Assembly (NCBI GenBank): GCA_011364965.1
Contig: RDOB01000012.1
Span: 1 to 48,263, forward strand
DNA length: 48,263 nt
Direction of reading: 5' to 3'
Origin: Candidatus Heimdallarchaeota archaeon
Lineage (GTDB): Archaea > Asgardarchaeota > Heimdallarchaeia > Hodarchaeales > Hodarchaeaceae
Positions 7,867 through 22,142 of this stretch are shown piece after piece. Position 1 is the stretch's first letter, and each line of letters starts with the position of its first letter. Both the position numbers and the translations under genes were made by a program. The notes beneath the pieces are model-generated. The model did not search any database and was not told the origin of the DNA. It saw nothing but the letters and a program-made list of their open reading frames with translations.

Positions 7867-9162
7867 TCAGAAAGGAAAAATTAAGTTGAAGAGCTCTATG
7901 GGAATGGGAAGACATACAAGTGCCACTAAAACCATAAATACAGCTACTAACTTTCTACTCGTAGTAACTGAGGAGATATCATCCAACGGTCCTGCATGGC
8001 CCGTTTGAGAGTACATAATAAGGATAAGAAGAGCAAAAGGCCAAAATCCTAAGACAAACATAATTCCTGCACTAATATAGGTCATGGTACGATGATTCCT
8101 TTCTGAAAATAGGCTTCTTGCTACATGACCTCCATCTAATTGACCAATTGGTATTAAATTAAGACCTGTAAGTAATAAACCAATGTACCCTGTAAAAGCA
8201 AGAGGATGTAGTAAAACCACAAACGATTCGGTAGTGGCAGGAACTATTATATATGCTAAAAACTCGAATAACAAAATTCGGTATCTTGTAGGAGATTCTA
8301 ATCGAAAATCTAGTACAAACAGGGAGCTTTCCATCTCACTAGGAATTAATGCAGCTGGAGCTGTAAAGGAAATCATTAATCCTAAAATGGTAAATGCTAT
8401 TGAAACTATTAAACCAAAAATTGGACCAGAAAGGCCAATATCAAACAGAGCATTTTTTGTTCGAATCGGGGATTTTTGCTGGATAAACGCTCCCATTGTT
8501 CCATAACCAAATGGAAATGGAATGAAATAGGGCCAACTGGCTTTAATTCCATGTAATCTAGAAGCAATCATATGTCCTAATTCATGTATACTAACTATTC
8601 CTACTAATCCAATGACATAAAGTAGACTTGTTAAGATAGGGTCAAGACTGGGGTCTACTTGCCGTAATATTTCCCAGCTGTTCAGTCCTACAAACATTAC
8701 TGAAAGAATCGTAAAAATATATAATATTATTGGAGTAGAAATTTTTTGTTTTTCAGATTCTTTCATTTTATTACTTATAGGTAATATATAAAGCATTCCT
8801 CTAGATTCATGAGTTGGATGCGGACGGAGGAGGGGAATAAATCCAAGTTCTCGTAACTCGTTATCTATCGCGGGCATACTTGAGGCAAGGTCACTTCTAC
8901 GTAGAATTTCATATGCTGGAATTGGAACTGTTTCCATATATGCTCTACTAGGGGACATTTCTTTATATGAAACTGACGTAACTGTAAAGAATTTGCTTAC
9001 TAGCTCGTCAATTTGCGAGTATACCCAGAATCGTGAGTTATTAAACATCATTAATTCACGTTCCTCAAGGTTTCTCCTCCCAAATAAATCCTTTGATACG
9101 AACATAGAATTTATTGAGATATTTAGATCCATCAAACAAGGAACCAAATTCGATACGAGCAT
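7867..9162 (-). CDS. Site-2 protease (peptidase M50) family membrane metalloprotease; true start probably downstream
   Basis: HELGH zinc motif, GLSGP, NLIPIGQLDGGH, multiple TM helices. Confidence 0.92.
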   Translation of the reverse strand: MLVSNLVPCLMDLNISINSMFVSKDLFGRRNLEERELMMFNNSRFWVYSQIDELVSKFFTVTSVSYKEMSPSRAYMETVPIPAYEILRRSDLASSMPAIDNELRELGFIPLLRPHPTHESRGMLYILPISNKMKESEKQKISTPIILYIFTILSVMFVGLNSWEILRQVDPSLDPILTSLLYVIGLVGIVSIHELGHMIASRLHGIKASWPYFIPFPFGYGTMGAFIQQKSPIRTKNALFDIGLSGPIFGLIVSIAFTILGLMISFTAPAALIPSEMESSLFVLDFRLESPTRYRILLFEFLAYIIVPATTESFVVLLHPLAFTGYIGLLLTGLNLIPIGQLDGGHVARSLFSERNHRTMTYISAGIMFVLGFWPFALLILIMYSQTGHAGPLDDISSVTTSRKLVAVFMVLVALVCLPIPIELFNLIFPF

Positions 9163-9795
9163 TTAAACGGTTATTCGAAAATCTCTTGGAGAGAAAGTTT
9201 CAGGTGCAATGACATCTATTAGATCTAAATTATTTTTCAATTCTAAAATCTTTTTCCCTCTGATCTTCCAAGAGGTTTCAAGCTTTTTCAAATGAAAGAG
9301 AGAAAAATTTTCATTTGAAGGAATTATGAATGTCCCTCCATAACGATTCAAAATGATGATGAATTCTTGGTTTTCAGACCATGAAGGTAACCGTAAATCA
9401 GCTAGAATCGCGATATGCCTAATATAAGTCAAACAAATAATTGGTTGAAGAAGCTGAAAGAAGAAATTCCCAAAAGAATGCTGGATTTCAAATTCTGCTC
9501 TATTTTCATGACATCTATATCGAAGAATTGGTAAGTCCTTCCAAGAAATACAGATCGGTTTGGAACCAGAATGATTGCATAATTCGACCATGAAGTGGAA
9601 TTCTATTCTCTTAATTTTTCCAAGTCCAGTAAGAGCTTCAATATATGCTTCCCTCTCATTGGAATCAGAAATGTGATTATTCCGATCAAACATGACATGT
9701 AGTAAGCGACAATTCATCTTGTATGCTAGAGAATGTTCACATAAAAGAATTATAGAAACGTTTCCCCGCAAAAAATGAAAGTTCCGATGCAGCAA
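9163..9795 (-). CDS. Hypothetical protein (start uncertain)
   Basis: 210-codon ORF filling the gap between co-oriented genes; no recognisable motif. Confidence 0.5.
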   Translation of the reverse strand: MLHRNFHFLRGNVSIILLCEHSLAYKMNCRLLHVMFDRNNHISDSNEREAYIEALTGLGKIKRIEFHFMVELCNHSGSKPICISWKDLPILRYRCHENRAEFEIQHSFGNFFFQLLQPIICLTYIRHIAILADLRLPSWSENQEFIIILNRYGGTFIIPSNENFSLFHLKKLETSWKIRGKKILELKNNLDLIDVIAPETFSPRDFRITV

Positions 9796-10725
9796 TTAAC
9801 CTTCGGTTATACTAGTTAGTTGAGAACTGAATGCTAAAACTTTATTATAAAGAGACGGGATAGGTTCATTTTTCTCTCTTAAACGATCCTTAGGGAATCC
9901 AAAGAATAAAGCAAGTCCGTTTTCCATAAAACGGATAAAGAAGACTCTACGTTCTGACTCTAATAATATTGTTGTTGCTGACTCACCATCGGAGTGTGCT
10001 AGACGCTTAACAACTGCATCAAAAAATTCTTGAACCTCAGAGAGTGATATATGATCGAATTTTGAGATATTCTCAACTTTGGTCAATGGTGCTCCTTCTT
10101 TTGTAAAAATTTGGGCCATATCAGCCGCGTTGTGCCGTATAAATGTTTCTAGTAATGGTCGTAAGGTTTTACGAGCACCACTAGCTTCTGCATATACATC
10201 ACCCATTGCTTTGAAAATGGAGTCCGAGAAAACAGATGTTGTATCATATTTTATGTCTTTTTTAACTCCTTGAAGAAGATATTCACTAATTGTTTTTCTA
10301 ACCTCCGATTTGAGATTTTTCGGAACTAAATCAGCTTTATGTTGAAAAATAAACACTTTAGCGTCTGGACTAAACTGCTCAAGTTTCTTCAAAGAGAGAT
10401 CTAAGTAATATTTAGCCCGTGATATATCAGTAATCTTAATAGAATCGACAACGAAAACTAAAGCTTTCACTCCAGAGAAAATGAATTCTGACAATTCTCC
10501 CGTAAATCGATCTAAAAATGCAGTTTGCCCGCCTAAATCGAAAATTGTAAGTTCAGTGCCTGCAATTACCTTCTGTTTTCTTTCATAATCGATTGTTGCC
10601 TCATATCTTTCCCCTTTTTTTGGTAATTTTCCTTCTATTACAACTTTAATGATTGTAGATTTTCCTGATTCCGCTAATCCTAATAAAAGAATTTTACTAG
10701 TTTTTTTACGTGCTAAATAAGACAT
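9796..10725 (-). CDS. Rag/Gtr1-like small GTPase with C-terminal roadblock-like domain
   Basis: G1 GLAESGKS, G2 ATID, G3 DLGGQ, G4 HKAD (His as in Rag/Gtr), G5 TSV; C-terminal alpha-beta-beta-alpha-beta-beta-beta-alpha pattern (AQIFTKEGAP). ATG at 10725 follows GAGGA. Confidence 0.88.
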   Translation of the reverse strand: MSYLARKKTSKILLLGLAESGKSTIIKVVIEGKLPKKGERYEATIDYERKQKVIAGTELTIFDLGGQTAFLDRFTGELSEFIFSGVKALVFVVDSIKITDISRAKYYLDLSLKKLEQFSPDAKVFIFQHKADLVPKNLKSEVRKTISEYLLQGVKKDIKYDTTSVFSDSIFKAMGDVYAEASGARKTLRPLLETFIRHNAADMAQIFTKEGAPLTKVENISKFDHISLSEVQEFFDAVVKRLAHSDGESATTILLESERRVFFIRFMENGLALFFGFPKDRLREKNEPIPSLYNKVLAFSSQLTSITEG

Positions 10726-10741
10726 TATAGTCAATCCTCAT

Positions 10742-11596
10742 TTACATACTTATCTCTCTTATGATACCTAATTTTTCTAATATCATTTCCCTTTCAAGTG
10801 GATCAGTTACATCGCGAATAGTGAATTCATTTTTAAAACGTGTTGAATTGAGTGATGAGGCACAGCTTCCAGCAAGAAACATTAGCTTCTGAAGACGTTC
10901 GTCTCTCAATTTAATGACAAAGATTCTTTTTACGACTCCATTCACCAGAATTAAGACTGAGTAAGGCGTTAAATCATCACTTGGTTCTAAACTAATTAAT
11001 TCTCCTTCTTCATCTATTGTGTAAAAACTTAATCCTGCTTTTTCAGGAATATAATACGGTTCTTCAACTATTTCTGCTTCCTCATCCAGTTCTTGAGGTA
11101 GATTTTTCATTTTATCTAGAATTGGCCTCATAATAGCTGGGTCAGAGAGATCTTGTTCTGCTTTTATACCTATTGTAGCCTCTTTTAACTCTTTTTCGAT
11201 AGAAGAATGTAACCTGAAGATTTTATTTCGATCACTTGATCGGAATATTAACCACACTGTGGATTCTCGTCCATATTCATCAATCCTAACATCCTTTGTT
11301 TTTATCGGTGACACAGTAAAAGACATCGCCAAAGCTTCTAAATCTGGGGAATCAGGGATTGGAATTGATCCATGGAGACGATAATGTTGTTTTTCGGCAA
11401 CAGTTCCAGCTCCCATGGACAAAATTGTCATGCCAATAACGCTTAGTTTAACAGTTGTATCTTCTGATATGGGGGAGATATTTAGAAGTGGATAAGGCCC
11501 CATATCCGTCATCGTGGTTGTTAACAGACCAATAAACACAATATTCACCATTAAATTAAGAAGAAATGAAATCTCGAACGAAAATATTTTGTTCAA
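10742..11596 (-). CDS. Putative longin/uDENN-like domain fused to gelsolin-like domain (likely start ~11551)
   Basis: N-term IGLLTTTMTDMGPYPL...HGSIPIP...ALAMSF...DVR....GR.TVWLIF; C-term FYTIDEEGEL...LTPYSVLILVN...RIFVI...MFLAGSCASSLN. Both are by-eye pattern matches. Confidence 0.6.
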   Translation of the reverse strand: MNKIFSFEISFLLNLMVNIVFIGLLTTTMTDMGPYPLLNISPISEDTTVKLSVIGMTILSMGAGTVAEKQHYRLHGSIPIPDSPDLEALAMSFTVSPIKTKDVRIDEYGRESTVWLIFRSSDRNKIFRLHSSIEKELKEATIGIKAEQDLSDPAIMRPILDKMKNLPQELDEEAEIVEEPYYIPEKAGLSFYTIDEEGELISLEPSDDLTPYSVLILVNGVVKRIFVIKLRDERLQKLMFLAGSCASSLNSTRFKNEFTIRDVTDPLEREMILEKLGIIREISM

Positions 11597-11622
11597 AATT
11601 TATTTCGCATATCAAGTTTTTA

Positions 11623-12561
11623 TTACTTTAGTTTTGAAATAATACTTTCTGCGATTTCTAGGCAATTCTCTTCAATAATTCTGAAAGGTTCCTTAAATAA
11701 GGTGAAAGCCGAATCTCGTCCTATTAAAATTAATTTCAAGTCTTCATTTAACATATGAGTGACCATAAGGAAATCTTCAAGTCTAAAAACATTTGTATTG
11801 ACACAAGATGAAAGCTCAAATGCATTGCTCTGGTCTAACATGCGAATGATTTGAGGACCGATTTTTTCTTGCCAGGAATTACTTTTCCCAACAGCAAGTA
11901 AAATGTCATTGCTTAAAGAAAGGAGGAATGCCCCAGCAAATTGAAGAGAGTTCATTTTTTGTGTTAAAATATCTGTGATTGCATCCGTTTGAGATCTTTT
12001 TAATGTTACTGACGAGATTGTCTGTTTAGTTAGCGCTGTAAAATAATCTAATGATTTATTGATAATCTGAGTGAAAACCAAGTTTGTTAAACGCTGTTCA
12101 TCAGAACCTTTTAAGGAGACAATGTAAGTAGGAATTTGGCCTGGGTATATTTCTTGCATTTGTGCTAACGCGTTATTTCTTAGCTTATTTCGCTCAACAT
12201 CATTTGTGATCAGATGACCTCGGTTAAGAATCAATACAACTTGGTAATTTTTATTAAATTTAGAAATTTCAGTAGTAATTTGACTAAAATCGGAGATCAT
12301 GTCATCTAAACGCTGATATGAAATATCATGAATATAAATTAAAGTATTTAATTTCATTAATATCTTTTCTTTTATAACAGGGAAAATACTTCTCAAATAC
12401 TCCTCTTCTACTTTAGAAGAGGATCTCAACCAGTCGTAATATACCACATTTTGGAAAATTCTAAGATTGGGTTCCGCTCTACCCAGTTTCATAAGCTGAT
12501 TAAAAAGTAGGTCTTTTCCTGAATGAGATAGGCCTGCAATGGCAATAAGGTTTTGTCGCAA
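11623..12561 (-). CDS. Degenerate Rag-like (pseudo)GTPase with C-terminal roadblock-like domain
   Basis: G1-like GLSHSGKD; switch region shortened, no DxxG; G4 position NRGH; LIYIHD strand retained; C-term FAGAFLLSLSNDILL. Confidence 0.7.
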   Translation of the reverse strand: MRQNLIAIAGLSHSGKDLLFNQLMKLGRAEPNLRIFQNVVYYDWLRSSSKVEEEYLRSIFPVIKEKILMKLNTLIYIHDISYQRLDDMISDFSQITTEISKFNKNYQVVLILNRGHLITNDVERNKLRNNALAQMQEIYPGQIPTYIVSLKGSDEQRLTNLVFTQIINKSLDYFTALTKQTISSVTLKRSQTDAITDILTQKMNSLQFAGAFLLSLSNDILLAVGKSNSWQEKIGPQIIRMLDQSNAFELSSCVNTNVFRLEDFLMVTHMLNEDLKLILIGRDSAFTLFKEPFRIIEENCLEIAESIISKLK

Positions 12562-12571
12562 AATGATTCCT

Positions 12572-13576
12572 CTAGGCTGGAGTTTGAAGCATAGATTCTA
12601 ACTGTGATGATAATAGTTTAACTGTTTCCTCAATTTCCTGAAGATTTCTTGATTCTAGCATTGCTTTATCTTCAGTTGAAAATAATACAAGAAGATAATG
12701 CGGGGGAATCACCGATTTATACATCATGCACGCCCCCATGCGTTTAATTTCAGATTTTGATGAAGGGATCATTCTAAGGTCATTGACTTTATCGAGAAGA
12801 TTTATAAGCTGCTCGATCTCAATATTTTCAACATCTGATGCTTGAATGCGAAAATCGGGATCCTCTAAAGAGATCAAGAGAACTTCTTCTAATCTATTCA
12901 TAAATTTTAGTGCATGGAGTAATTGTTGAATTGGACGAAGTCGTAATCTCTTTTGAATAGCTTCTAGGTCTTCTTCTTTCTCAATTCGTTCGACTTCGGG
13001 AATTACTTCACTAGCTTCTGCTGTTATTCGTTTGAAAGCTTCATGAATGGAATTATCGTAAATAGAAGTTTGTAAAAATGTTATATTCTTGGTTTTCACT
13101 GCATCCTGAAACATCTCCATCAGAAATTCCATTCGATCTGCACGTTGTGTTAAATCAGGCAAAAGATCAGTTTTATGGAGTAAAACATAGACAGCAGGCT
13201 GGATATCAGACATTTCTTCAAGTCTGGTTACCCCTTCAACAAATGCTTTCAAAGAGGCAGGAAATTTATCCGGGGTGGAGATATCACAAATGAATACAAG
13301 AACTGCAACATTGCTAAAGATAAAAGAACTCATACTACTTAAGAATCGTTTTAAAAATACCTCCTGTCCTCCTAAATCCATCACTGTTACAGATTCATCT
13401 GCTACTTGTTCTATTTGCCGTTCATAATTTAAAGTTGCCGCGTAATTTTGGGTTTCCTCTGGAGCTTTTCCTCCAAATACGACATCCCGAATTGATGTTT
13501 TCCCAGCTTGAGACAACCCTAATAAAATGATTTTGCGGGACGTCTGGGTCTTGAGTTGTTTCAGATAATGACTCAT
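12572..13576 (-). CDS. RagA/Gtr1-like small GTPase with C-terminal roadblock-like domain
   Basis: KIILLGLSQAGKTSIRDVVF, ATLNYE, DLGGQEVFL, FSNVAVLVF, LLHKTDL, TSIYDNSIHEAF closely parallel RagA/Gtr1 motifs. Confidence 0.9.
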   Translation of the reverse strand: MSHYLKQLKTQTSRKIILLGLSQAGKTSIRDVVFGGKAPEETQNYAATLNYERQIEQVADESVTVMDLGGQEVFLKRFLSSMSSFIFSNVAVLVFICDISTPDKFPASLKAFVEGVTRLEEMSDIQPAVYVLLHKTDLLPDLTQRADRMEFLMEMFQDAVKTKNITFLQTSIYDNSIHEAFKRITAEASEVIPEVERIEKEEDLEAIQKRLRLRPIQQLLHALKFMNRLEEVLLISLEDPDFRIQASDVENIEIEQLINLLDKVNDLRMIPSSKSEIKRMGACMMYKSVIPPHYLLVLFSTEDKAMLESRNLQEIEETVKLLSSQLESMLQTPA

Positions 13577-13762
13577 TATATCGAATCCTCGAGCATACTG
13601 TTAAATATACTTTTTCGACGCAACGATTTAAGATACACCAAATAAGTTTTCCGAAAGAATATTGTTGAAAAAAAGGTTAGTATAATTTAAAAATTCTGTA
13701 GCCAGATTCATGCCTGTAAATAGTAACTTTTCATCGTACACCTTGGATGGAGAGCCTAATTC

Positions 13763-14119
13763 TTGCAAAAACGAAAAAATTCTGATATTTTTTGTGAAAG
13801 CACCTGTAAACACTTTCGTTGTAGTGAAAGAATGATTAAAATCGTACATAAACAAAACGCAAAGGAAATTTTATGTCGAATGGTAGAGGGAGATGATTGT
13901 ATAGGCTATAAATGCAAATTTGCAATCTGTTTTTATCGTCCTCCAGCATTAAATCTTTCGACTGGTCATTGCTCTATGAAAAAGAAGGCTTTAATTTCAA
14001 AGCAACAAGATCAGAGAAAATCACTCCGATCCTTAAGAGAGGAAGATGATCCTCTTAAATACAGCAAGCTTTTAGATAAAAAAGTAAGGAAAAATTTCCA
14101 ATTGAAGGATTATTATTGA
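13763..14119 (+). CDS. Small Cys-rich (8 Cys) putative metal-binding protein
   Basis: C-x3-C-x4-C ... C-x7-C-x4-C-x4-C ... GHC; resembles an uncharacterised archaeal family. Confidence 0.7.
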   Translation: MQKRKNSDIFCESTCKHFRCSERMIKIVHKQNAKEILCRMVEGDDCIGYKCKFAICFYRPPALNLSTGHCSMKKKALISKQQDQRKSLRSLREEDDPLKYSKLLDKKVRKNFQLKDYY

Positions 14120-15246
14120 TCAAATCGTTCCAAAACTACTTCTCTTGCTTTTGGTAACGCATCCAACCGCTTTTGCTTATGAGAGACCATAAACTCCTGT
14201 ACAATCCCTAGAAGATTTTTCTTATCTTCTCCACATAGTAATTCCCCCGCTCGACAGGTCTGCTCGATTTTTTGAAGCTTGGTTTCATCATGCATGAAGA
14301 AAAATCTATAAAGATCAAAAACCCTACATACTTCGGGTTGTCCTCCTAATTCTCGCTGTTCATCTACTGTTGTGCGTCCCCCTGTAAATGCGTTCATCAA
14401 TTTCTTTTTTAGACTAGCTTTGGTCTCATACAAGGTTAATACTGACATTGGGTTCCTTTTGGCCATTTTATCTGAGCCATCTAATCCCTCAATTAATCTA
14501 TGGTAAGTAAAACTCGGTAAAATGAATTTATAATTCTCTTGAAAGAATTTTTTCCGTACTAAGTCATGAGATAGTCTCGCATGAGGTGCTTGATCTGCAC
14601 CAATCGGGGTAACAGTTGGTAAAGTCCCCTCAAGTAATTGTGGAAGTAGAATATCAGCTACTTGAATAAACGCTGCATTATAAACCCCTAATCTATGGTC
14701 TCCATAAATGGCTTTCACCATATTATAAGTGGCATGAGATGAGAGGAGATATCCTAAACGCATCACATCTTTCTGTTGGGACTGTCTATATACATATGCA
14801 TTGTCGAGATTTAAACCGAGGGCTATCAAATCCGCAACATTCTCAATGGCATTCTTTTCAGCTTTTTCAAGAGGTAAACGTCCATCAGCATAGCTTTCTA
14901 AATCTGCAATGCCAAAATATACCTTTCCTCCTTGTTTTTGAAAATAAATGACTTCATTACATGTTACAAGATTACCAATATGGTATTCTGCTGAGCTAGG
15001 TTTGATCCCAGTCATCACAGCAAAAGGTTTATTCTTATTCATTGCTTCAACAACCCTTTCCAGCGAAGTGTGCCCAAACATTATTCCGCGAGTCATATAG
15101 AAATGCTGACGATCTTTGGGAATCTGGGGAAGGATTTCATCCATCGGTTGAATTCCAAATTCAGCAATTAACCTATCGTAGTCAGTAACTGAGCCGCCAA
15201 AAGCATCAACTGTACTTTGAATATTGTTATCTTCATCAGGTGTCAT
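14113..15246 (-). CDS. trpS: Tryptophan--tRNA ligase (archaeal type)
   Basis: MTGIKPS..YHIGN (HIGH), QVADIL, GADQAPH, KMAK (KMSKS-like), AFTGGR, CGEDK. Confidence 0.95.
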   Translation of the reverse strand: MTPDEDNNIQSTVDAFGGSVTDYDRLIAEFGIQPMDEILPQIPKDRQHFYMTRGIMFGHTSLERVVEAMNKNKPFAVMTGIKPSSAEYHIGNLVTCNEVIYFQKQGGKVYFGIADLESYADGRLPLEKAEKNAIENVADLIALGLNLDNAYVYRQSQQKDVMRLGYLLSSHATYNMVKAIYGDHRLGVYNAAFIQVADILLPQLLEGTLPTVTPIGADQAPHARLSHDLVRKKFFQENYKFILPSFTYHRLIEGLDGSDKMAKRNPMSVLTLYETKASLKKKLMNAFTGGRTTVDEQRELGGQPEVCRVFDLYRFFFMHDETKLQKIEQTCRAGELLCGEDKKNLLGIVQEFMVSHKQKRLDALPKAREVVLERFDQ

Positions 15247-17228: not shown

Positions 17229-18134
17229 ATGATGAAGGTTAGTTTGGTTGGTTTAAGTGGTTGTGGAAAGACATCCATCTATTCAACTACTCTTGGAGGT
17301 ATGACACCTTCAGAGGTCGAACATTTGGGCCCTACGGTAATGTATGAAGTAAAGAGTCATAACTACCTTGGATTACAAATCTCACTCTGGGACTTCGGAG
17401 GACAGGAAGAATACCGTAAAAATTACTTGGAAACTCCAAAGCTATTAGCAAATACGAATCTCTTAATCTTCATCTTGGATTTGCATAACCCCGAAGACTA
17501 TGATAAGGCCGATAGCTATTTCAATGATGTTTATACTTCCATAAAGAAAAGTGGCGGATCCCCTACGGTTTTTATCTTTTATCACAAGTTTGATACAGAG
17601 AAGTATCCCGAAGATAAGCTTAACCAGAATCTAACACGCGCTAAAGAATTACCTACTGTGAAAAAGCTAAAACCTCGTTCTTTTGTTACATCTATCTTTA
17701 GACAAGAGGAATTAAGTGAAATATTTAGACAATTACTAATCTCTGATTTTGATGAGTTAAAAAAGGGTGTTGAGCAAGCTCAAGAGTACCTTCTGAAATT
17801 AAAATCAAAAATAATCGTGAGTGATGTAAATGGGAATGTAGTTACCCATAATATCAAGGGTTTTGCCACTGGAATTCAATTAAGAGAGGATTTACGAGAT
17901 TATATCCTTGCTTGCAACGTATTAAGAGAGAATTTCCTTTCTAGCGAATCAGCTTTTTTCACAGCACAATCAGACAAAAAAGATTTAAAATTGCACATTT
18001 TTAATTACGTTTTATCGGTGCTAATTATGCAGGACGAAGGAGCACCCACTGATCCGAAAGAAGATATTGATAATTTACTAAAAGAAATGAAAATCTTTTC
18101 AGATCTCATCATTGATGCAAGTAAAGAAACTTAG
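17229..18134 (+). CDS. Rag/Gtr-like small GTPase with C-terminal roadblock-like domain
   Basis: GLSGCGKT, GPTVMYE, WDFGGQ, HKFD, TSIF; C-term KIIVSDVNGNVV. Confidence 0.87.
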   Translation: MMKVSLVGLSGCGKTSIYSTTLGGMTPSEVEHLGPTVMYEVKSHNYLGLQISLWDFGGQEEYRKNYLETPKLLANTNLLIFILDLHNPEDYDKADSYFNDVYTSIKKSGGSPTVFIFYHKFDTEKYPEDKLNQNLTRAKELPTVKKLKPRSFVTSIFRQEELSEIFRQLLISDFDELKKGVEQAQEYLLKLKSKIIVSDVNGNVVTHNIKGFATGIQLREDLRDYILACNVLRENFLSSESAFFTAQSDKKDLKLHIFNYVLSVLIMQDEGAPTDPKEDIDNLLKEMKIFSDLIIDASKET

Positions 18135-18163
18135 ATGAAGAAAATCTCAATAAAACAACTTAA

Positions 18164-19645
18164 TCATTTCTGTTCTTCGTTAATTAATTTCGCTAGTTCA
18201 ATTTTCCTAGTCAAGATTTTCCCCTGATTATCTGAAATTGTCATAATGTACTCACTATCATCACCTAATCTGGGAAATTCGAAATCTAATGCCTCTGCTG
18301 GGAACCATTCGCGTACAGCTGTTTCCCAAGTATGAGATTCAAATAATTCCCCTGCTAACAATGTTATGCGAACTTGAATACGCTCTAACACTTTTCCGCT
18401 ACGATTAATGATAGTAGTTTGAATATAACGTTCATTTGGTAAGAGTTGGATATTCTGAACTCGGACTATCTGCTTTCTAATTACACCAACTTTTTCTTCA
18501 ACCAAAGTTTCTTTTTCAGGTATTGATGGCCTACCTACAGAGAGCTCTGAAGGCATTTGAAAAGCATAAGATCTTCTTCGATTGACCGTATACAATTGAA
18601 CTTTTTTCAAATTAGCTAATCTTAACACTGGTTTTAGATCTTTAATGGATATAGGTATAAGTTCTATGTAACCACTGTCTGCAGCGTCCTGTAAAATTTC
18701 TAATCCTAATCCTGTCCGCGCTAAAACAGTATTATATCCATCTGGCGCGCCTACAGATCCAACAGATATATCTGCATTTTCACTGGTGAAATCAACGCAG
18801 TAATGGCAGGAACTAGCCCGTAATCGATCCATATCATGAACTGAATGGCTGATGGTTTCACCTTCCTCCTGAATCATGTGGAATTTTCCTTTAGAAATTG
18901 TCATTTTGGAAATTTTTCCAATTGGAACTTTATCAACATCTTCTATAAAATCACGGAGTCTTTCATATGAAAATGCGTCCATACAGAAAAGACCGATCTT
19001 TAAAACAGAACTTCTCATGAAAAGCCGTACAAGACCATAGGGGGATTTTTGCATTTTATCAACAGCATCAATATTGCACGGACACCCCACAAAAGCAATT
19101 GAATGAAGGCCAGATTTAATCCCTTGTAATAATTTTCCTACTGCTTGAGATTGACTATAAATCGATCCAGATCCCTTAAGAACATCCTCGATTTTTGAAG
19201 TTAGAATGGGTTTAGGTTTCCAAGGATCCTCTTCGTCATGTGTAGTCAGAATAGCTCCGTCAACCATTTTCTCTTTTAATAAGTACACTAGTAAACTTGT
19301 TATTACACCTCCGTCCTGTCCCTTTACTTCTGGAAGAAGGGATTTTGCTCTAAAAGTATCAATAAAATTACCTAGAAGTTGAGGTACAGTCGTTTTTGTT
19401 TTAGGACATTGATGAACACACACTCCGCAGGCCGTACATTTTCCTACAAGTTGAGGGCGATCATTAACCATTTCTATAGCATTATCACTGCATGATGCTA
19501 CACAAGCGCCACAAGCACTGCATAAACCAGCATCAATCACCTCTTTTTTGAGCGTGGCAAATTTTACATCTTTTGAGTCTTTTAATCTGCGCTTCGATAA
19601 TCGGTAGCTTATTAATGAGGGAGTATCGTCATTGAGTTCAGCCAT
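18164..19645 (-). CDS. Coenzyme F420 hydrogenase/dehydrogenase beta-subunit (FrhB/FdhB/FpoF) family protein with 2x[4Fe-4S] and extra C-terminal domain X
   Basis: CSACGACVASC, CTACGVCVHQCP, QDGGVITSLL, VGCPC, IGLFC, CHYCVDFT..ADISVGSVG; about 100 extra C-terminal residues. Confidence 0.9.
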   Translation of the reverse strand: MAELNDDTPSLISYRLSKRRLKDSKDVKFATLKKEVIDAGLCSACGACVASCSDNAIEMVNDRPQLVGKCTACGVCVHQCPKTKTTVPQLLGNFIDTFRAKSLLPEVKGQDGGVITSLLVYLLKEKMVDGAILTTHDEEDPWKPKPILTSKIEDVLKGSGSIYSQSQAVGKLLQGIKSGLHSIAFVGCPCNIDAVDKMQKSPYGLVRLFMRSSVLKIGLFCMDAFSYERLRDFIEDVDKVPIGKISKMTISKGKFHMIQEEGETISHSVHDMDRLRASSCHYCVDFTSENADISVGSVGAPDGYNTVLARTGLGLEILQDAADSGYIELIPISIKDLKPVLRLANLKKVQLYTVNRRRSYAFQMPSELSVGRPSIPEKETLVEEKVGVIRKQIVRVQNIQLLPNERYIQTTIINRSGKVLERIQVRITLLAGELFESHTWETAVREWFPAEALDFEFPRLGDDSEYIMTISDNQGKILTRKIELAKLINEEQK

Positions 19646-19661
19646 ATCCTTTACCTCTGTG

Positions 19662-20081
19662 CTAATTTGATTTAGATAGTTTACGGGGTAATTCTAAGGT
19701 ATTAAAAGCAGCAATGATATCATAAGATGTTATAATTCCTGACAACTCTGCTGTTTCCTCATTGATAACTGGCAGTCTCTTAATCTTATGGATATGCATG
19801 AGCATTAATGCTTCTTTAATTAACTCTTCTTCCGAAACTGTGATCAATTCTCTTTCAACAATCTCCTTTGCTTTTACTTTACAAGGATTTTGACAGTCTA
19901 AAACAACTCGTTCAACAATATCTCTTTTAGTAATGATTCCTATTGGTTTTCCTTTTTCCATAACCAAAACTGATCCTATCTTATGATCAATGATCAGCTT
20001 TGCAGCCATCGCAATGTCATCATCGACATCTACAGAAATTATATTTGGAGTCATTACATCTTTTACTCTAGTCTCATTCAA
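19662..20081 (-). CDS. Stand-alone CBS-pair protein
   Basis: VKDVMTPNIISV, IGSVLV..GIITKRDI, IKRLPV..GIITSYDII. Confidence 0.92.
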   Translation of the reverse strand: MNETRVKDVMTPNIISVDVDDDIAMAAKLIIDHKIGSVLVMEKGKPIGIITKRDIVERVVLDCQNPCKVKAKEIVERELITVSEEELIKEALMLMHIHKIKRLPVINEETAELSGIITSYDIIAAFNTLELPRKLSKSN

Positions 20082-20091
20082 TTTATCCGAC

Positions 20092-21075
20092 TCAACCTAA
20101 TATTCTTCGAATTTTAATTGTTTCATGATCATCTTCGATCTTCAGAAAGTAAATAGTTCCTGGATCAGGCTTGGGTTTAAATTTAATCGATACCTGTTCC
20201 TCTGGTTCCCAAGTTTTAATTTTAAAAACCTCTAAATCATGTCCAAAAAACCCTTGAGATTCGTAAACTCTCAATAAAACATTATTTATTGGTTTTGAAT
20301 TAGTATTCTTCGCTGTGACTTCAATGTGCGAGTTATTATGCTTAATTTCAACTATTTTTACTCTCTTCGGTTTAATGCTCAAGTTTACCTCAGATTTTTT
20401 TACAGGAGTAGTATCTATTCTCGAAGAGGGGATAACAAATCTCCGTTTCTCTAATTTAGCCTCAGTTCCTCTACTCGCTTCAGATGATGAGTCTTCTTCT
20501 GAAAATCTGGGGAGAGTATAATTTAGTTTTTCTAAAGAAACTTTAGGAATAAGTGAGTCACATAAGGATTTTAGTTCATTTTCAACATGATCAGCAAACC
20601 TGTGAATTTCCTCTTCAATTGGCTCTTTTTCTTCAAGTAATAAACTTTTTTCCACTAAGTAACATAACTTCTCTCCCAGATTCCCTGTTATCCGTAATTT
20701 CAATTCATATAAGATTTCTTGAGCGATAAAGGAAACTCTTGATGGAGAACGAATGATTAATATAAAACGTTCCATCCTCCATTTGAGAGATTCCATTCCC
20801 GAGCGTTTCTTTGTCCTTCTGCTCTTGCATTGTAATAATGTTGCACTATAGTTAATTCCTTCCATTTCTAGATCCATATGATCAAATTTTTCAGTTTCAA
20901 TGAATTTATCTTGATGCCACCAGATTGGATGTATTTTTATAATCCGCTGTTCATCTTCATTTGCTGCCAAATCGGGTGGATAAGTGAATAATGGGACATG
21001 TCCTCGTTGTTCGTCATAGAAATATAAAAAGAAACCGTAAGAATTTCCTAATTGATTATTTTTCTGTTCACTCAT
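20092..21075 (-). CDS. Putative longin/uDENN-like protein with C-terminal domain X
   Basis: GFFLYFYDEQRGHVPLFTYP resembles the uDENN/NPR2-type first hairpin; C-terminus is similar to neighbouring genes. Confidence 0.6.
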   Translation of the reverse strand: MSEQKNNQLGNSYGFFLYFYDEQRGHVPLFTYPPDLAANEDEQRIIKIHPIWWHQDKFIETEKFDHMDLEMEGINYSATLLQCKSRRTKKRSGMESLKWRMERFILIIRSPSRVSFIAQEILYELKLRITGNLGEKLCYLVEKSLLLEEKEPIEEEIHRFADHVENELKSLCDSLIPKVSLEKLNYTLPRFSEEDSSSEASRGTEAKLEKRRFVIPSSRIDTTPVKKSEVNLSIKPKRVKIVEIKHNNSHIEVTAKNTNSKPINNVLLRVYESQGFFGHDLEVFKIKTWEPEEQVSIKFKPKPDPGTIYFLKIEDDHETIKIRRILG

Positions 21076-21182
21076 CCTAAATGTAATCCTAGTCCTTTGT
21101 TTAAATCAAACAAAGCTAATTTTTTATTTAATCTCATTTTTAATAAGATTACGACGTGAAATATATCTTAAGTACTAGTAAT

Positions 21183-22142
21183 TCAAGTGTTATTAATTTC
21201 AATCGATTTAATTGCAATAGTCGAATTTCGACTACTAATTTTTATTAAATAAGTCTCACTCTCAGATCCCTTATCAAATTCTAATATTAAATCTTCTTTC
21301 ATTGGCCAGTTATCGAGAGTTTCTTCCCAAATAGTTTCTCCAAAAAAAGCTGAGCTCTTAGAAACAACAATTTTCACATCAAATAGATCCTCATTTGGAT
21401 TTTCTAGCACTACTAGCAAATTTTGGGGGTTCTCATCGAGTTCGTGTACTCTTAATTTTATCCTGTCTTTAAAAAAATCTTTAGCACATACTCCAGCATC
21501 TGATGGAGCAAAATCAGTCACCGAACTAGGAATGATGGGTTTTACAGTAGTCTGGACTTTTTTCATTAAATTCTCTTTAAATATCTGCCATTCAGCTATC
21601 AGATTGCGTTCTATCTCTCGAATTTTAGGTTGAAGTTCTGTGAACGTTCTTTTCATAACTGGATTCGACTCGAGCTGTTTGCTTTTGTAAATTAGGGGAA
21701 AATCATGACAAAATTTTTCTTCTAATTGAGTTTTTAGGTTGTAAATGGCATCAGAATCAATGGGATTGTTATCCTTCCATAGTTTCAATACAATCCCATA
21801 CACAACGTCATTTAAGGCCGATTGTTCTTGCTGGAGAGAGAAATGCAATTGAAAAGCGGAATACACAAATTCGGAAAATTTCAGGTCAATACGGATAGGA
21901 ATATCATCTAATTTCCATATACAATGGGTTTTAAGGATGCTTACTTCATTTTGGTTCTCGCTAAGAGAGCTTGGAAAAGCGAATAGAACTTGGAGTCCTT
22001 TAATCGCGTCAAAAGAACATAGAAAAAAACCAATAACTCCTACATTGGAATCTAGGCTATTGTTTTTATGTTCCAATTGGAAATTTACATCAAAAAAAGG
22101 ATCGACATCCATCGTATTCCCTAACTTAAGGTGATTAGACAA
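21183..22142 (-). CDS. Putative longin/uDENN-like protein with C-terminal domain X, paralog of the previous gene (likely ATG at 22112)
   Basis: GFFLCSFDAIKGLQVLFAFP; shares K.H.IW and DL....YSA motifs with 20092..21075. Confidence 0.6.
   Translation of the reverse strand: MSNHLKLGNTMDVDPFFDVNFQLEHKNNSLDSNVGVIGFFLCSFDAIKGLQVLFAFPSSLSENQNEVSILKTHCIWKLDDIPIRIDLKFSEFVYSAFQLHFSLQQEQSALNDVVYGIVLKLWKDNNPIDSDAIYNLKTQLEEKFCHDFPLIYKSKQLESNPVMKRTFTELQPKIREIERNLIAEWQIFKENLMKKVQTTVKPIIPSSVTDFAPSDAGVCAKDFFKDRIKLRVHELDENPQNLLVVLENPNEDLFDVKIVVSKSSAFFGETIWEETLDNWPMKEDLILEFDKGSESETYLIKISSRNSTIAIKSIEINNT

Follow-up and report, generated by a model that had tools for sequence, protein, structure and literature searches.

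A cluster of Rag-type GTPases and a longin-gelsolin-like protein as a candidate small-GTPase switch module of Heimdallarchaeia

Introduction

Do archaeal relatives of eukaryotes hold Rag-type GTPases that work together with a longin regulator of their own? The question is raised by four co-oriented open reading frames (ORFs), g1-g2-g3-g4 in this order, on the minus strand of a contig from Candidatus Heimdallarchaeota archaeon (GenBank assembly GCA_011364965.1, contig RDOB01000012.1, positions 9796-13576), which a first-pass annotation made from the letters alone had described as a Rag-like operon with its own regulator. The window, i.e., the whole stretch of 48,263 nucleotides that was analysed, is contig C5 of a 2.97-Mb assembly that is about 87% complete, and the relatives of its genes all come from metagenome-assembled genomes of Hodarchaeales or Heimdallarchaeia. 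In our reading, the cluster is a Rag-type small-GTPase switch module of Heimdallarchaeia that includes a dedicated longin regulator, which is probably a GTPase-activating protein (GAP); we give this reading a probability of roughly 0.55. The evidence that carries it is the type of the two intact GTPases, the predicted fold and motifs of the longin protein, and the recurrent linkage of their genes, once as a natural fusion.

Results

The outer genes of the cluster, g1 and g4, encode intact GTPases that their sequences assign to the Rag/Gtr family, with no visible correspondence to RagA versus RagC. All five G motifs are canonical in both proteins, including the Rag-type HKxD (GLSQAGKT, ATLNYE, DLGGQE, HKTD, and TSIYD in g1; GLAESGKS, ATIDYE, DLGGQT, HKAD, and TSVFSD in g4), and every RagA/Gtr1 motif that had been listed for g1 at first pass was found, i.e., AGKTSIRDVVF, ATLNYE, DLGGQEVF, FSNVAVLVF, HKTDL, and TSIYD. 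The Pfam family Gtr1_RagA (PF04670) matched g1 with an E-value of 1.2e-35 (123.5 bits) and g4 with 2.7e-35 (122.3 bits), the Pfam family Arf matched them with 1.8e-10 (41 bits) and 1.1e-15 (58 bits), respectively, and their nearest PDB relatives are Gtr1 and RagA, followed by Gtr2 and RagC, and then Arf. When the g4-type family profile (A8; 37 sequences, 38-82% identical) was searched against the PDB, it reached human RagA at an E-value of 1e-33 (120 bits), its positions 7-282 aligning to RagA 5-279 of 313, a stretch that takes in the G domain and nearly all of the roadblock domain; Gtr2/RagC scored 55-72 bits and Arf less than 48. The G-domain profile of the g1 type gave 103-112 bits for Gtr1/RagA, 63-72 for RagC/Gtr2, and at most 48 for Arf. 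By profile scores, both types are nearer to RagA/Gtr1 than to RagC/Gtr2, about 40 bits apart, and the suggestion that they are Rag-like rather than Arf- or Rab-like stands at the profile level (103-120 bits for RagA/Gtr1 versus at most 48 for Arf).

Asgard sequences make up all of the 120 best homologues of g4, with no eukaryotic sequence among them; a language-model search with the g4 tail returned eukaryotic PF04670 clusters at 0.82-0.84, under the 0.9 line, and is taken as a lead only. Among loci of the same genus, median identity is 80% both for g1 (18 loci) and for g4 (20 loci), which are thus more conserved than ABCE1 (71%). The N-terminus of g1 (13550-13576) reads MSHYLKQLK, nine residues that are invariant in 13 orthologues, and g4 (10693-10725) opens with MSYLxRKK; these short basic extensions might serve membrane or partner contact.

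The protein encoded by g3 has no sequence match in Pfam, NCBIfam or the PDB, and it was characterized on an AlphaFold2 (AF2) model with two domains (predicted local distance difference test, pLDDT, 74.5), whose fold was compared by VIA-align Z scores. Residues 3-146 take a longin fold, which matched a Lokiarchaeal longin (8yqg, Z 10.1), the C9orf72-SMCR8 complex (7o2w, Z 10.0), Lst4 (4zy8, Z 9.2), a FLCN-FNIP2 chain (6nzd_H, Z 8.8), and a GATOR1 chain (8fw5_B, Z 6.9). Residues 157-253 take a gelsolin fold, closest to Thor ProGel (Z 10.7, root-mean-square deviation 2.6 Å over 87 residues) and followed by gelsolin, adseverin, and villin (Z 8-10) and the gelsolin-like domain of Sec23 (Z 7.7). The longin fold seen by the first-pass annotation is therefore present, but the protein is not a plain longin, as a C-terminal gelsolin-like domain is added. 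ESM Atlas rows for g3 include gelsolin, villin, and CapG clusters and carry PF00626; Pfam Gelsolin itself did not match g3, and the sole sequence link to gelsolin is that of the g3 family profile, in its C-terminal positions, with the genome's own gelsolin-like protein (E-value 1e-3). The latter, encoded on contig C12 (172683-173648), consists of two domains with a Pro/Thr-rich linker.

Two hallmarks of GAP-type longins have been published. The GP motif stands just before strand β2 and adjoins the Arg finger in FLCN, NPRL2, SMCR8, and C9orf72, and is absent in longins of the guanine nucleotide exchange factor (GEF) type (PMC12290439), and the Arg residues FLCN R164 and SMCR8 R147 lie in the loop from βL4 to βL5 (bioRxiv 10.1101/2020.04.16.045708). 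In g3, the motif D16-x-G18-P19 precedes β2 and is invariant in 26 orthologues, and a set of 22 more distant family members (25-58% identity) retains it at a level of at least 90%. The β4-β5 loop of g3 holds D87-x-R89 and G94-R95, of which D87 is invariant and R89, like G94-R95, is found in at least 90% of the 22 members, and D87 and R89 are placed between the model strands 55-68 and 82-91. The most conserved residues of g3 fall in the longin domain. As modelled, this domain is of the FLCN/SMCR8/Lst4 kind, with both published hallmarks present. We liken it to the longin domain of FLCN, SMCR8, and NPRL2, but do not file g3 as a member of those families because its C-terminal domain differs, being gelsolin-like instead of DENN or NPRL-type. 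Two further GP-motif longin paralogues of g3 are encoded in the genome (C14:75120-76292 and C1:17996-18739). Elsewhere, at L051:5001-6798, tandem g3-family paralogues of 270 and 279 residues adjoin a TnpB-like gene, in a neighbourhood free of GTPase genes, and this tandem may form a longin heterodimer.

The grouping of these genes is not due to chance, because the same order and spacers were found in all 20 related loci wherever the contig allows. These loci were collected via g3, have spacers of 10-50 nucleotides, and share the order third Rag, MFS, in some cases tryptophanyl-tRNA synthetase (TrpRS), a small divergent ORF, g1 to g4, g5, the M50 protease, and ABCE1; as all of them belong to one GTDB genus, their synteny is weak evidence taken alone. 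The linkage extends beyond the genus. On a contig of a sister genus (L044), genes of the g1, g4, and g3 types stand in a row, and the start of the g4-type gene overlaps the previous stop; a stop/start overlap was also seen in L055. A HMMER scan of 1.84 billion representatives gave 114 g3-family clusters, about 18 of them with both domains, and the contigs of eight were inspected. In three of the eight (P0277, P0281, and P0285), the gene directly after the g3-type one is of the g4 type (42-45% identity across its full length), and two of these three continue with a protein that joins a G domain of the g1 type to a long tail; on a fourth contig, a g1-type G-domain gene directly follows the g3-type gene. 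Finally, the natural fusion P0282 (NCBI MFX1533204.1, L050:5001-6794) combines in 597 residues a g3-type longin-gelsolin-like part (residues 7-263, 36% identity to g3, E-value 7e-57) and a full g4-type GTPase (residues 276-577, 42% identity to all of g4, E-value 9e-85). The conserved linkage of g3 and the fusion of g3 with g4 lend support to the proposal that the cluster has its own regulator. Of 400 Asgard genomes scanned, 83 are Heimdallarchaeia, of which 79 encode a member of the g3 family, compared with 3 of the remaining 317.

A degenerate Rag-like protein is encoded by g2, in agreement with the pseudo-GTPase that had been proposed, since it lacks canonical G motifs. Its motifs are non-canonical yet invariant across 25 orthologues (alignment A2): the P-loop GLSHSGKD keeps its Lys and has Asp in the place of Ser/Thr, D43-W (D-W-L) stands for DxxGQ, NRxH stands for HKxD, and the switch I/β2-β3 hairpin is missing from the AF2 model. 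The alignment with RagA puts LIYxHD on β4 and NRGH on HKMD; HDISYQ was considered as the G3 motif and rejected, since it also falls on β4. Pfam Gtr1_RagA matched residues 55-229 only (9e-6, 25.7 bits). The model (pLDDT 85) has a reduced G-like domain followed by residues 189-311 in the roadblock topology α-β-β-α-β-β-β-α, and the top 43 Foldseek matches are all full-length Rag/Gtr chains (E-values 1e-12 to 1e-7), followed by MglB with a template modelling (TM) score of 0.66. The protein was found only in Hodarchaeales, and its median identity among same-genus loci is 54% versus 80% for g1 and g4. On this comparison, g2 can be described as a fast-evolving, degenerate duplicate of the g1 type which retained the roadblock tail, because hhalign joins it to g1 and not, beyond a weak stretch, to g4; judging by its motifs, it has lost guanine specificity, switch I, and the catalytic motifs.

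The alignment of g2 to g1 by hhalign runs from residue 53 to the C-terminus and covers the whole g1 tail (probability 90%, E-value 1.6e-6), and that of g2 to g4 comprises a weak G-domain stretch and nothing further. The g4 tail alone gave no hhalign match to the tails of g1 or g2, and a shallow g4-tail profile gave none in the PDB; only the deeper family profile A8 reached the RagA tail. The architecture of G domain plus roadblock tail that the first-pass annotation had assigned to three of the genes was thus recovered in a different way for each, i.e., for g2 by its model and Foldseek matches, for the g4 type by the alignment to RagA 5-279, and for g1 via the homology of its tail to that of g2. 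Two g1-type G domains from other contigs (L049:3002-5983 and L055:4252-6924) are fused to tails of 700-800 residues, which contain low-complexity repeats and three repeated helical modules of no assigned family.

The coordinates of the cluster and its nearest neighbours are given in Table 1. The four genes are separated by short spacers, as annotated, of 10 nucleotides (g1-g2), 26-71 nucleotides depending on the start chosen (g2-g3), and 16 nucleotides (g3-g4). The start of g3 in the table agrees with the N-termini of its orthologues, and the ORF is open as far as TTG 11596. The GAGGA ribosome-binding sites described earlier are found 7-12 nucleotides upstream of the g1, g2, and g4 starts, and none precedes the g3 start. 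Bacterial-type promoters and terminators were as numerous as in shuffled sequences, a type of scan that is not applicable to archaea. The 20 sequencing runs that matched positions 7867-14200 are all DNA, from estuary, marine-sediment, mangrove, and soil metagenomes.

Table 1. Genes of the cluster and adjacent features in the window
Feature	Coordinates	Strand	Product and remarks
g1	12572..13576	-	334 aa, intact Rag/Gtr-family GTPase with a C-terminal domain homologous to the g2 roadblock
g2	11623..12561	-	312 aa, Rag-like pseudo-GTPase, roadblock domain at residues 189-311
g3	10742..11551	-	269 aa from ATG 11551, N-terminal longin and C-terminal gelsolin-like domain
g4	9796..10725	-	309 aa from ATG, intact RagA/Gtr1-like GTPase with RagA-type roadblock tail
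g5	9163..9795	-	210-aa hypothetical protein, module membership doubtful
g6	7867..9162	-	M50 site-2-type metalloprotease (Peptidase_M50, 2.7e-23), same-strand neighbour
Divergent ORF	13763..14119	+	118 aa, Cys-rich, conserved, upstream of g1

The idea that the hypothetical gene g5 and the site-2 protease could be outputs of the cluster was not supported and is rejected, since their conservation stops at the genus; both are absent from the distant g3/g4 loci. No family was found for g5 in Pfam, NCBIfam or the Atlas, its identity is 34-43%, and of the 18 loci with a contig that extends as far as its place, 3 gave no g5. The transcript of g1-g4 may end at 9740-9796, since a T6 run lies there about 20 nucleotides past the g4 stop and the conserved part of g5 starts only near Met27 (9717). 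The divergent ORF, for which there is no Pfam family, is 52-58% identical and recurs at this place in 15 of the 18 loci that extend upstream of g1; it is possibly a dedicated regulator. Further away, a third Rag-like GTPase of 301 residues (17229-18134, Gtr1_RagA 2.7e-22), whose position is kept in most same-genus loci, converges on genes for an FrhB-like protein, a CBS-pair protein, and two Pfam-less paralogues of about 320 residues (17229-22142). One locus (L017, LJUQ01000002.1), deposited as 'Bacteroides sp. SM23_62_1', holds the full Hodarchaeales cluster at 55-81% identity and is probably a mis-binned archaeal contig.

Discussion

We read g3 as a direct regulator of g4, likely a GAP, because of the type of its longin domain, the two hallmark motifs, and the natural fusion of the two proteins. 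The longin platform of g3 would bind the G domain of g4, and possibly that of g1 too, and would speed GTP hydrolysis via Arg89, in the way that FLCN and NPRL2 act on Rags. By analogy with Rags and MglB, the GTPases would assemble via their roadblock tails into g1:g2, g1:g4 or g4:g4 pairs, with g2 serving as a nucleotide-insensitive scaffold or partner subunit. A complex prediction for g1, g2, and g4, with g4 as the partner, returned an ipSAE of 0.00, which in a run without controls is uninformative either way. A more far-reaching scenario can be offered tentatively: the partnership of Rag with a GP-motif/Arg-finger longin GAP could predate eukaryotes and have been kept in Heimdallarchaeia as an operon and once as a fusion, where g3 would be the GAP of g4, g1 with g2 would form a second dimer arm, and the gelsolin-like domain would couple the module to actin or to a Sec23-like contact.

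Several observations weigh against the reading of the cluster as a Rag switch with a longin GAP. In eukaryotes, longin GAPs act as heterodimers in which two longin proteins combine, their C-terminal domains being DENN or others, and the cluster has a single longin gene, whose product carries a gelsolin-like domain; moreover, GEFs outnumber GAPs among longin and roadblock platforms. The fusion P0282 carries GT where GP is expected. In the Heimdallarchaeial families f4 and f7, the g3-family gene is accompanied not by Rag-type but by Arf-type GTPases of about 335 residues (PF00025 scores of 125 and 66 bits, with some 130 residues added at the C-terminus), which form a tightly packed pair in f4 (L088-L091) and occur as a single gene about 1.2 kb away in f7 (L095 and L096), and in the families f5 and f6 no GTPase was seen adjoining the g3-family gene. 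The Arf-type partners indicate that the class of the partner GTPase is not fixed; the conserved theme is a g3-type longin with GTPase genes of the Arf/Rag superfamily, and the Rag version is the one of this lineage. As for the pairing of subunits, no mutual similarity of the g1 and g4 tails was detectable by hhalign, and distant g1-type proteins bear long non-roadblock tails, so that the comparison does not imply a Rag-style g1:g4 roadblock heterodimer. Lokiarchaeal Rag-like proteins in the PDB are described as one monomer and one homotetramer, and the heterodimer is thus no rule in Asgard.

It is quite possible, if short of probable, that g1 pairs with g2 through their related tails as an active/pseudo heterodimer and that g4 and g3 make up a separate unit, as they do in the fusion. 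Because the tails of g1 and g2 are homologous and those of g1 and g4 are not detectably so, g1:g2 pairing would seem at least as plausible as g1:g4; in addition, the g1-g2 spacer measures 10-11 nucleotides in 17 of 19 loci, g2 exists only where the g1 tail is g2-like, and the adjacency or fusion of g3 and g4 is the most widely conserved link. Against such a division stands the trio of g1, g4, and g3 types that persists in distant lineages without g2, and the tails of RagA and RagC are known to pair though they are little alike. The module could also be the same with g3 acting as a GEF or as a passive dimeric platform, comparable to TRAPP, Mon1-Ccz1 or Ragulator, and with the Arg and GP residues serving binding or folding. 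This we regard as unlikely: published work describes the GP motif as peculiar to GAP longins, D-x-R occupies the loop of the FLCN and SMCR8 Arg finger, and the top fold matches of g3 are longins of GAP complexes, although longin/roadblock platforms are mainly GEFs (PMC10933270), a GEF role was suggested by Liu et al. for Asgard FLCN-like modules, the fusion lacks the Pro of GP, and another member of the g3 family (P0289) lacks the Arg of D-x-R.

An improbable alternative makes g3 an effector or adaptor that ties the GTPases to the Asgard actin cytoskeleton. The resemblance of its C-terminal domain to Asgard and eukaryotic gelsolin domains (Z 8-10.7), the profile match to the gelsolin-like protein of the genome, and the gelsolin, villin, and CapG clusters of the Atlas would fit this role, but Pfam Gelsolin does not match, conservation is concentrated in the longin domain, and gelsolin-like domains occur in the GTPase-binding coat proteins Sec23/24 too. 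That the genes have stayed side by side but do not work as a unit, their synteny reflecting shared descent in one genus, we consider very improbable. All 20 syntenic loci do come from a single genus in which the flanking ABCE1, MFS, and TrpRS genes are syntenic as well; against this, the linkage recurs with permuted order in another genus, in another class, and in unbinned contigs, as well as in the fusion, and the genes are packed with spacers of 10-50 nucleotides or, in L044 and L055, with stop/start overlaps. The reading of the cluster as a Rag-type switch with g3 as its probable GAP is the one we prefer.

The operon linkage of Rag and longin genes, their fusion, the longin-gelsolin architecture, and the Rag-like pseudo-GTPase appear to be new, as no prior description of them was found. 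Two RagA-like GTPases, one pseudo-GTPase, and one longin protein of 265 residues make up a compact, expressible set, with which it could be tested whether the nutrient-sensing logic of Rag and longin GAP existed in the archaeal relatives of eukaryotes. In this set, g1 and g2 provide a natural pair of active and pseudo-GTPase paralogues, and the longin plus gelsolin-like architecture was previously undescribed.

Comparison with known systems

The cluster resembles the eukaryotic Rag/Gtr system in its Rag-type G motifs (HKxD and DxGGQ), in the C-terminal roadblock, in profile scores that lie far above those of Arf or Ras, and in two paralogues encoded together. It differs from the RagA/B-RagC/D pair in that g1 and g4 are both nearer to RagA/Gtr1 and a third, degenerate paralogue is present, and there is, as far as tested, no Ragulator, TORC1 or lysosome context in the organism. 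Rag-like GTPases that carry a fused roadblock or longin domain have been published from Asgard archaea (Tran et al. 2024, PMC10933270); one Rag-like operon pair of MK-D1 was predicted by AF2 to form a Gtr1/Gtr2-like heterodimer, and GTPase genes were reported generally not to be in operons with roadblock or longin genes (PMC10933270). The genes described here share the GTPase plus roadblock architecture with the MK-D1 pair, and have in addition a longin gene inside the operon and a pseudo-GTPase. The same architecture is common to the Lokiarchaeal PDB proteins mentioned above, LokiRagO (8yl2) and LokiRagM (8zla/9m28), for which our literature search found no paper on the structures. The bacterial MglA-MglB system likewise has a prokaryotic small GTPase beside a regulator of the roadblock/longin superfamily, and the g2 tail is similar to MglB; however, MglB is a free roadblock homodimer, MglA lacks a fused roadblock, and the sequence families differ.

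In its longin fold, the GP before β2, and the Arg between β4 and β5, g3 is similar to FLCN-FNIP (Lst7-Lst4), GATOR1 NPRL2-NPRL3, and C9orf72-SMCR8, and its genetic coupling to Rag-type GTPases, or to Arf-type ones in other Heimdallarchaeial families, mirrors the action of FLCN and GATOR1 on Rag and of CSW on Arf. Unlike these complexes, g3 is encoded by a single longin gene for a protein of about 265 residues with a gelsolin-like instead of a DENN or NPRL-type domain, and its activity is predicted; yeast Lst7 consists of a longin only (bioRxiv 10.1101/2020.04.16.045708). Liu et al. reported that the Asgard FLCN-like DENN operon goes with a Rab-like GTPase and not with Rag, though Rag-like proteins are abundant, and a 2025 survey of 15 GP-motif longins of FLCN/SMCR8 type from Heimdallarchaeia left open whether the partner GTPase is ArfR or Rag (PMC12290439). 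The cluster, its permuted versions, and the fusion address both gaps: g3 shares the GP and Arg arrangement and the Heimdallarchaeial focus of the surveyed longins, and beyond that survey, the operon, the trio, and the fusion name candidate partner GTPases.

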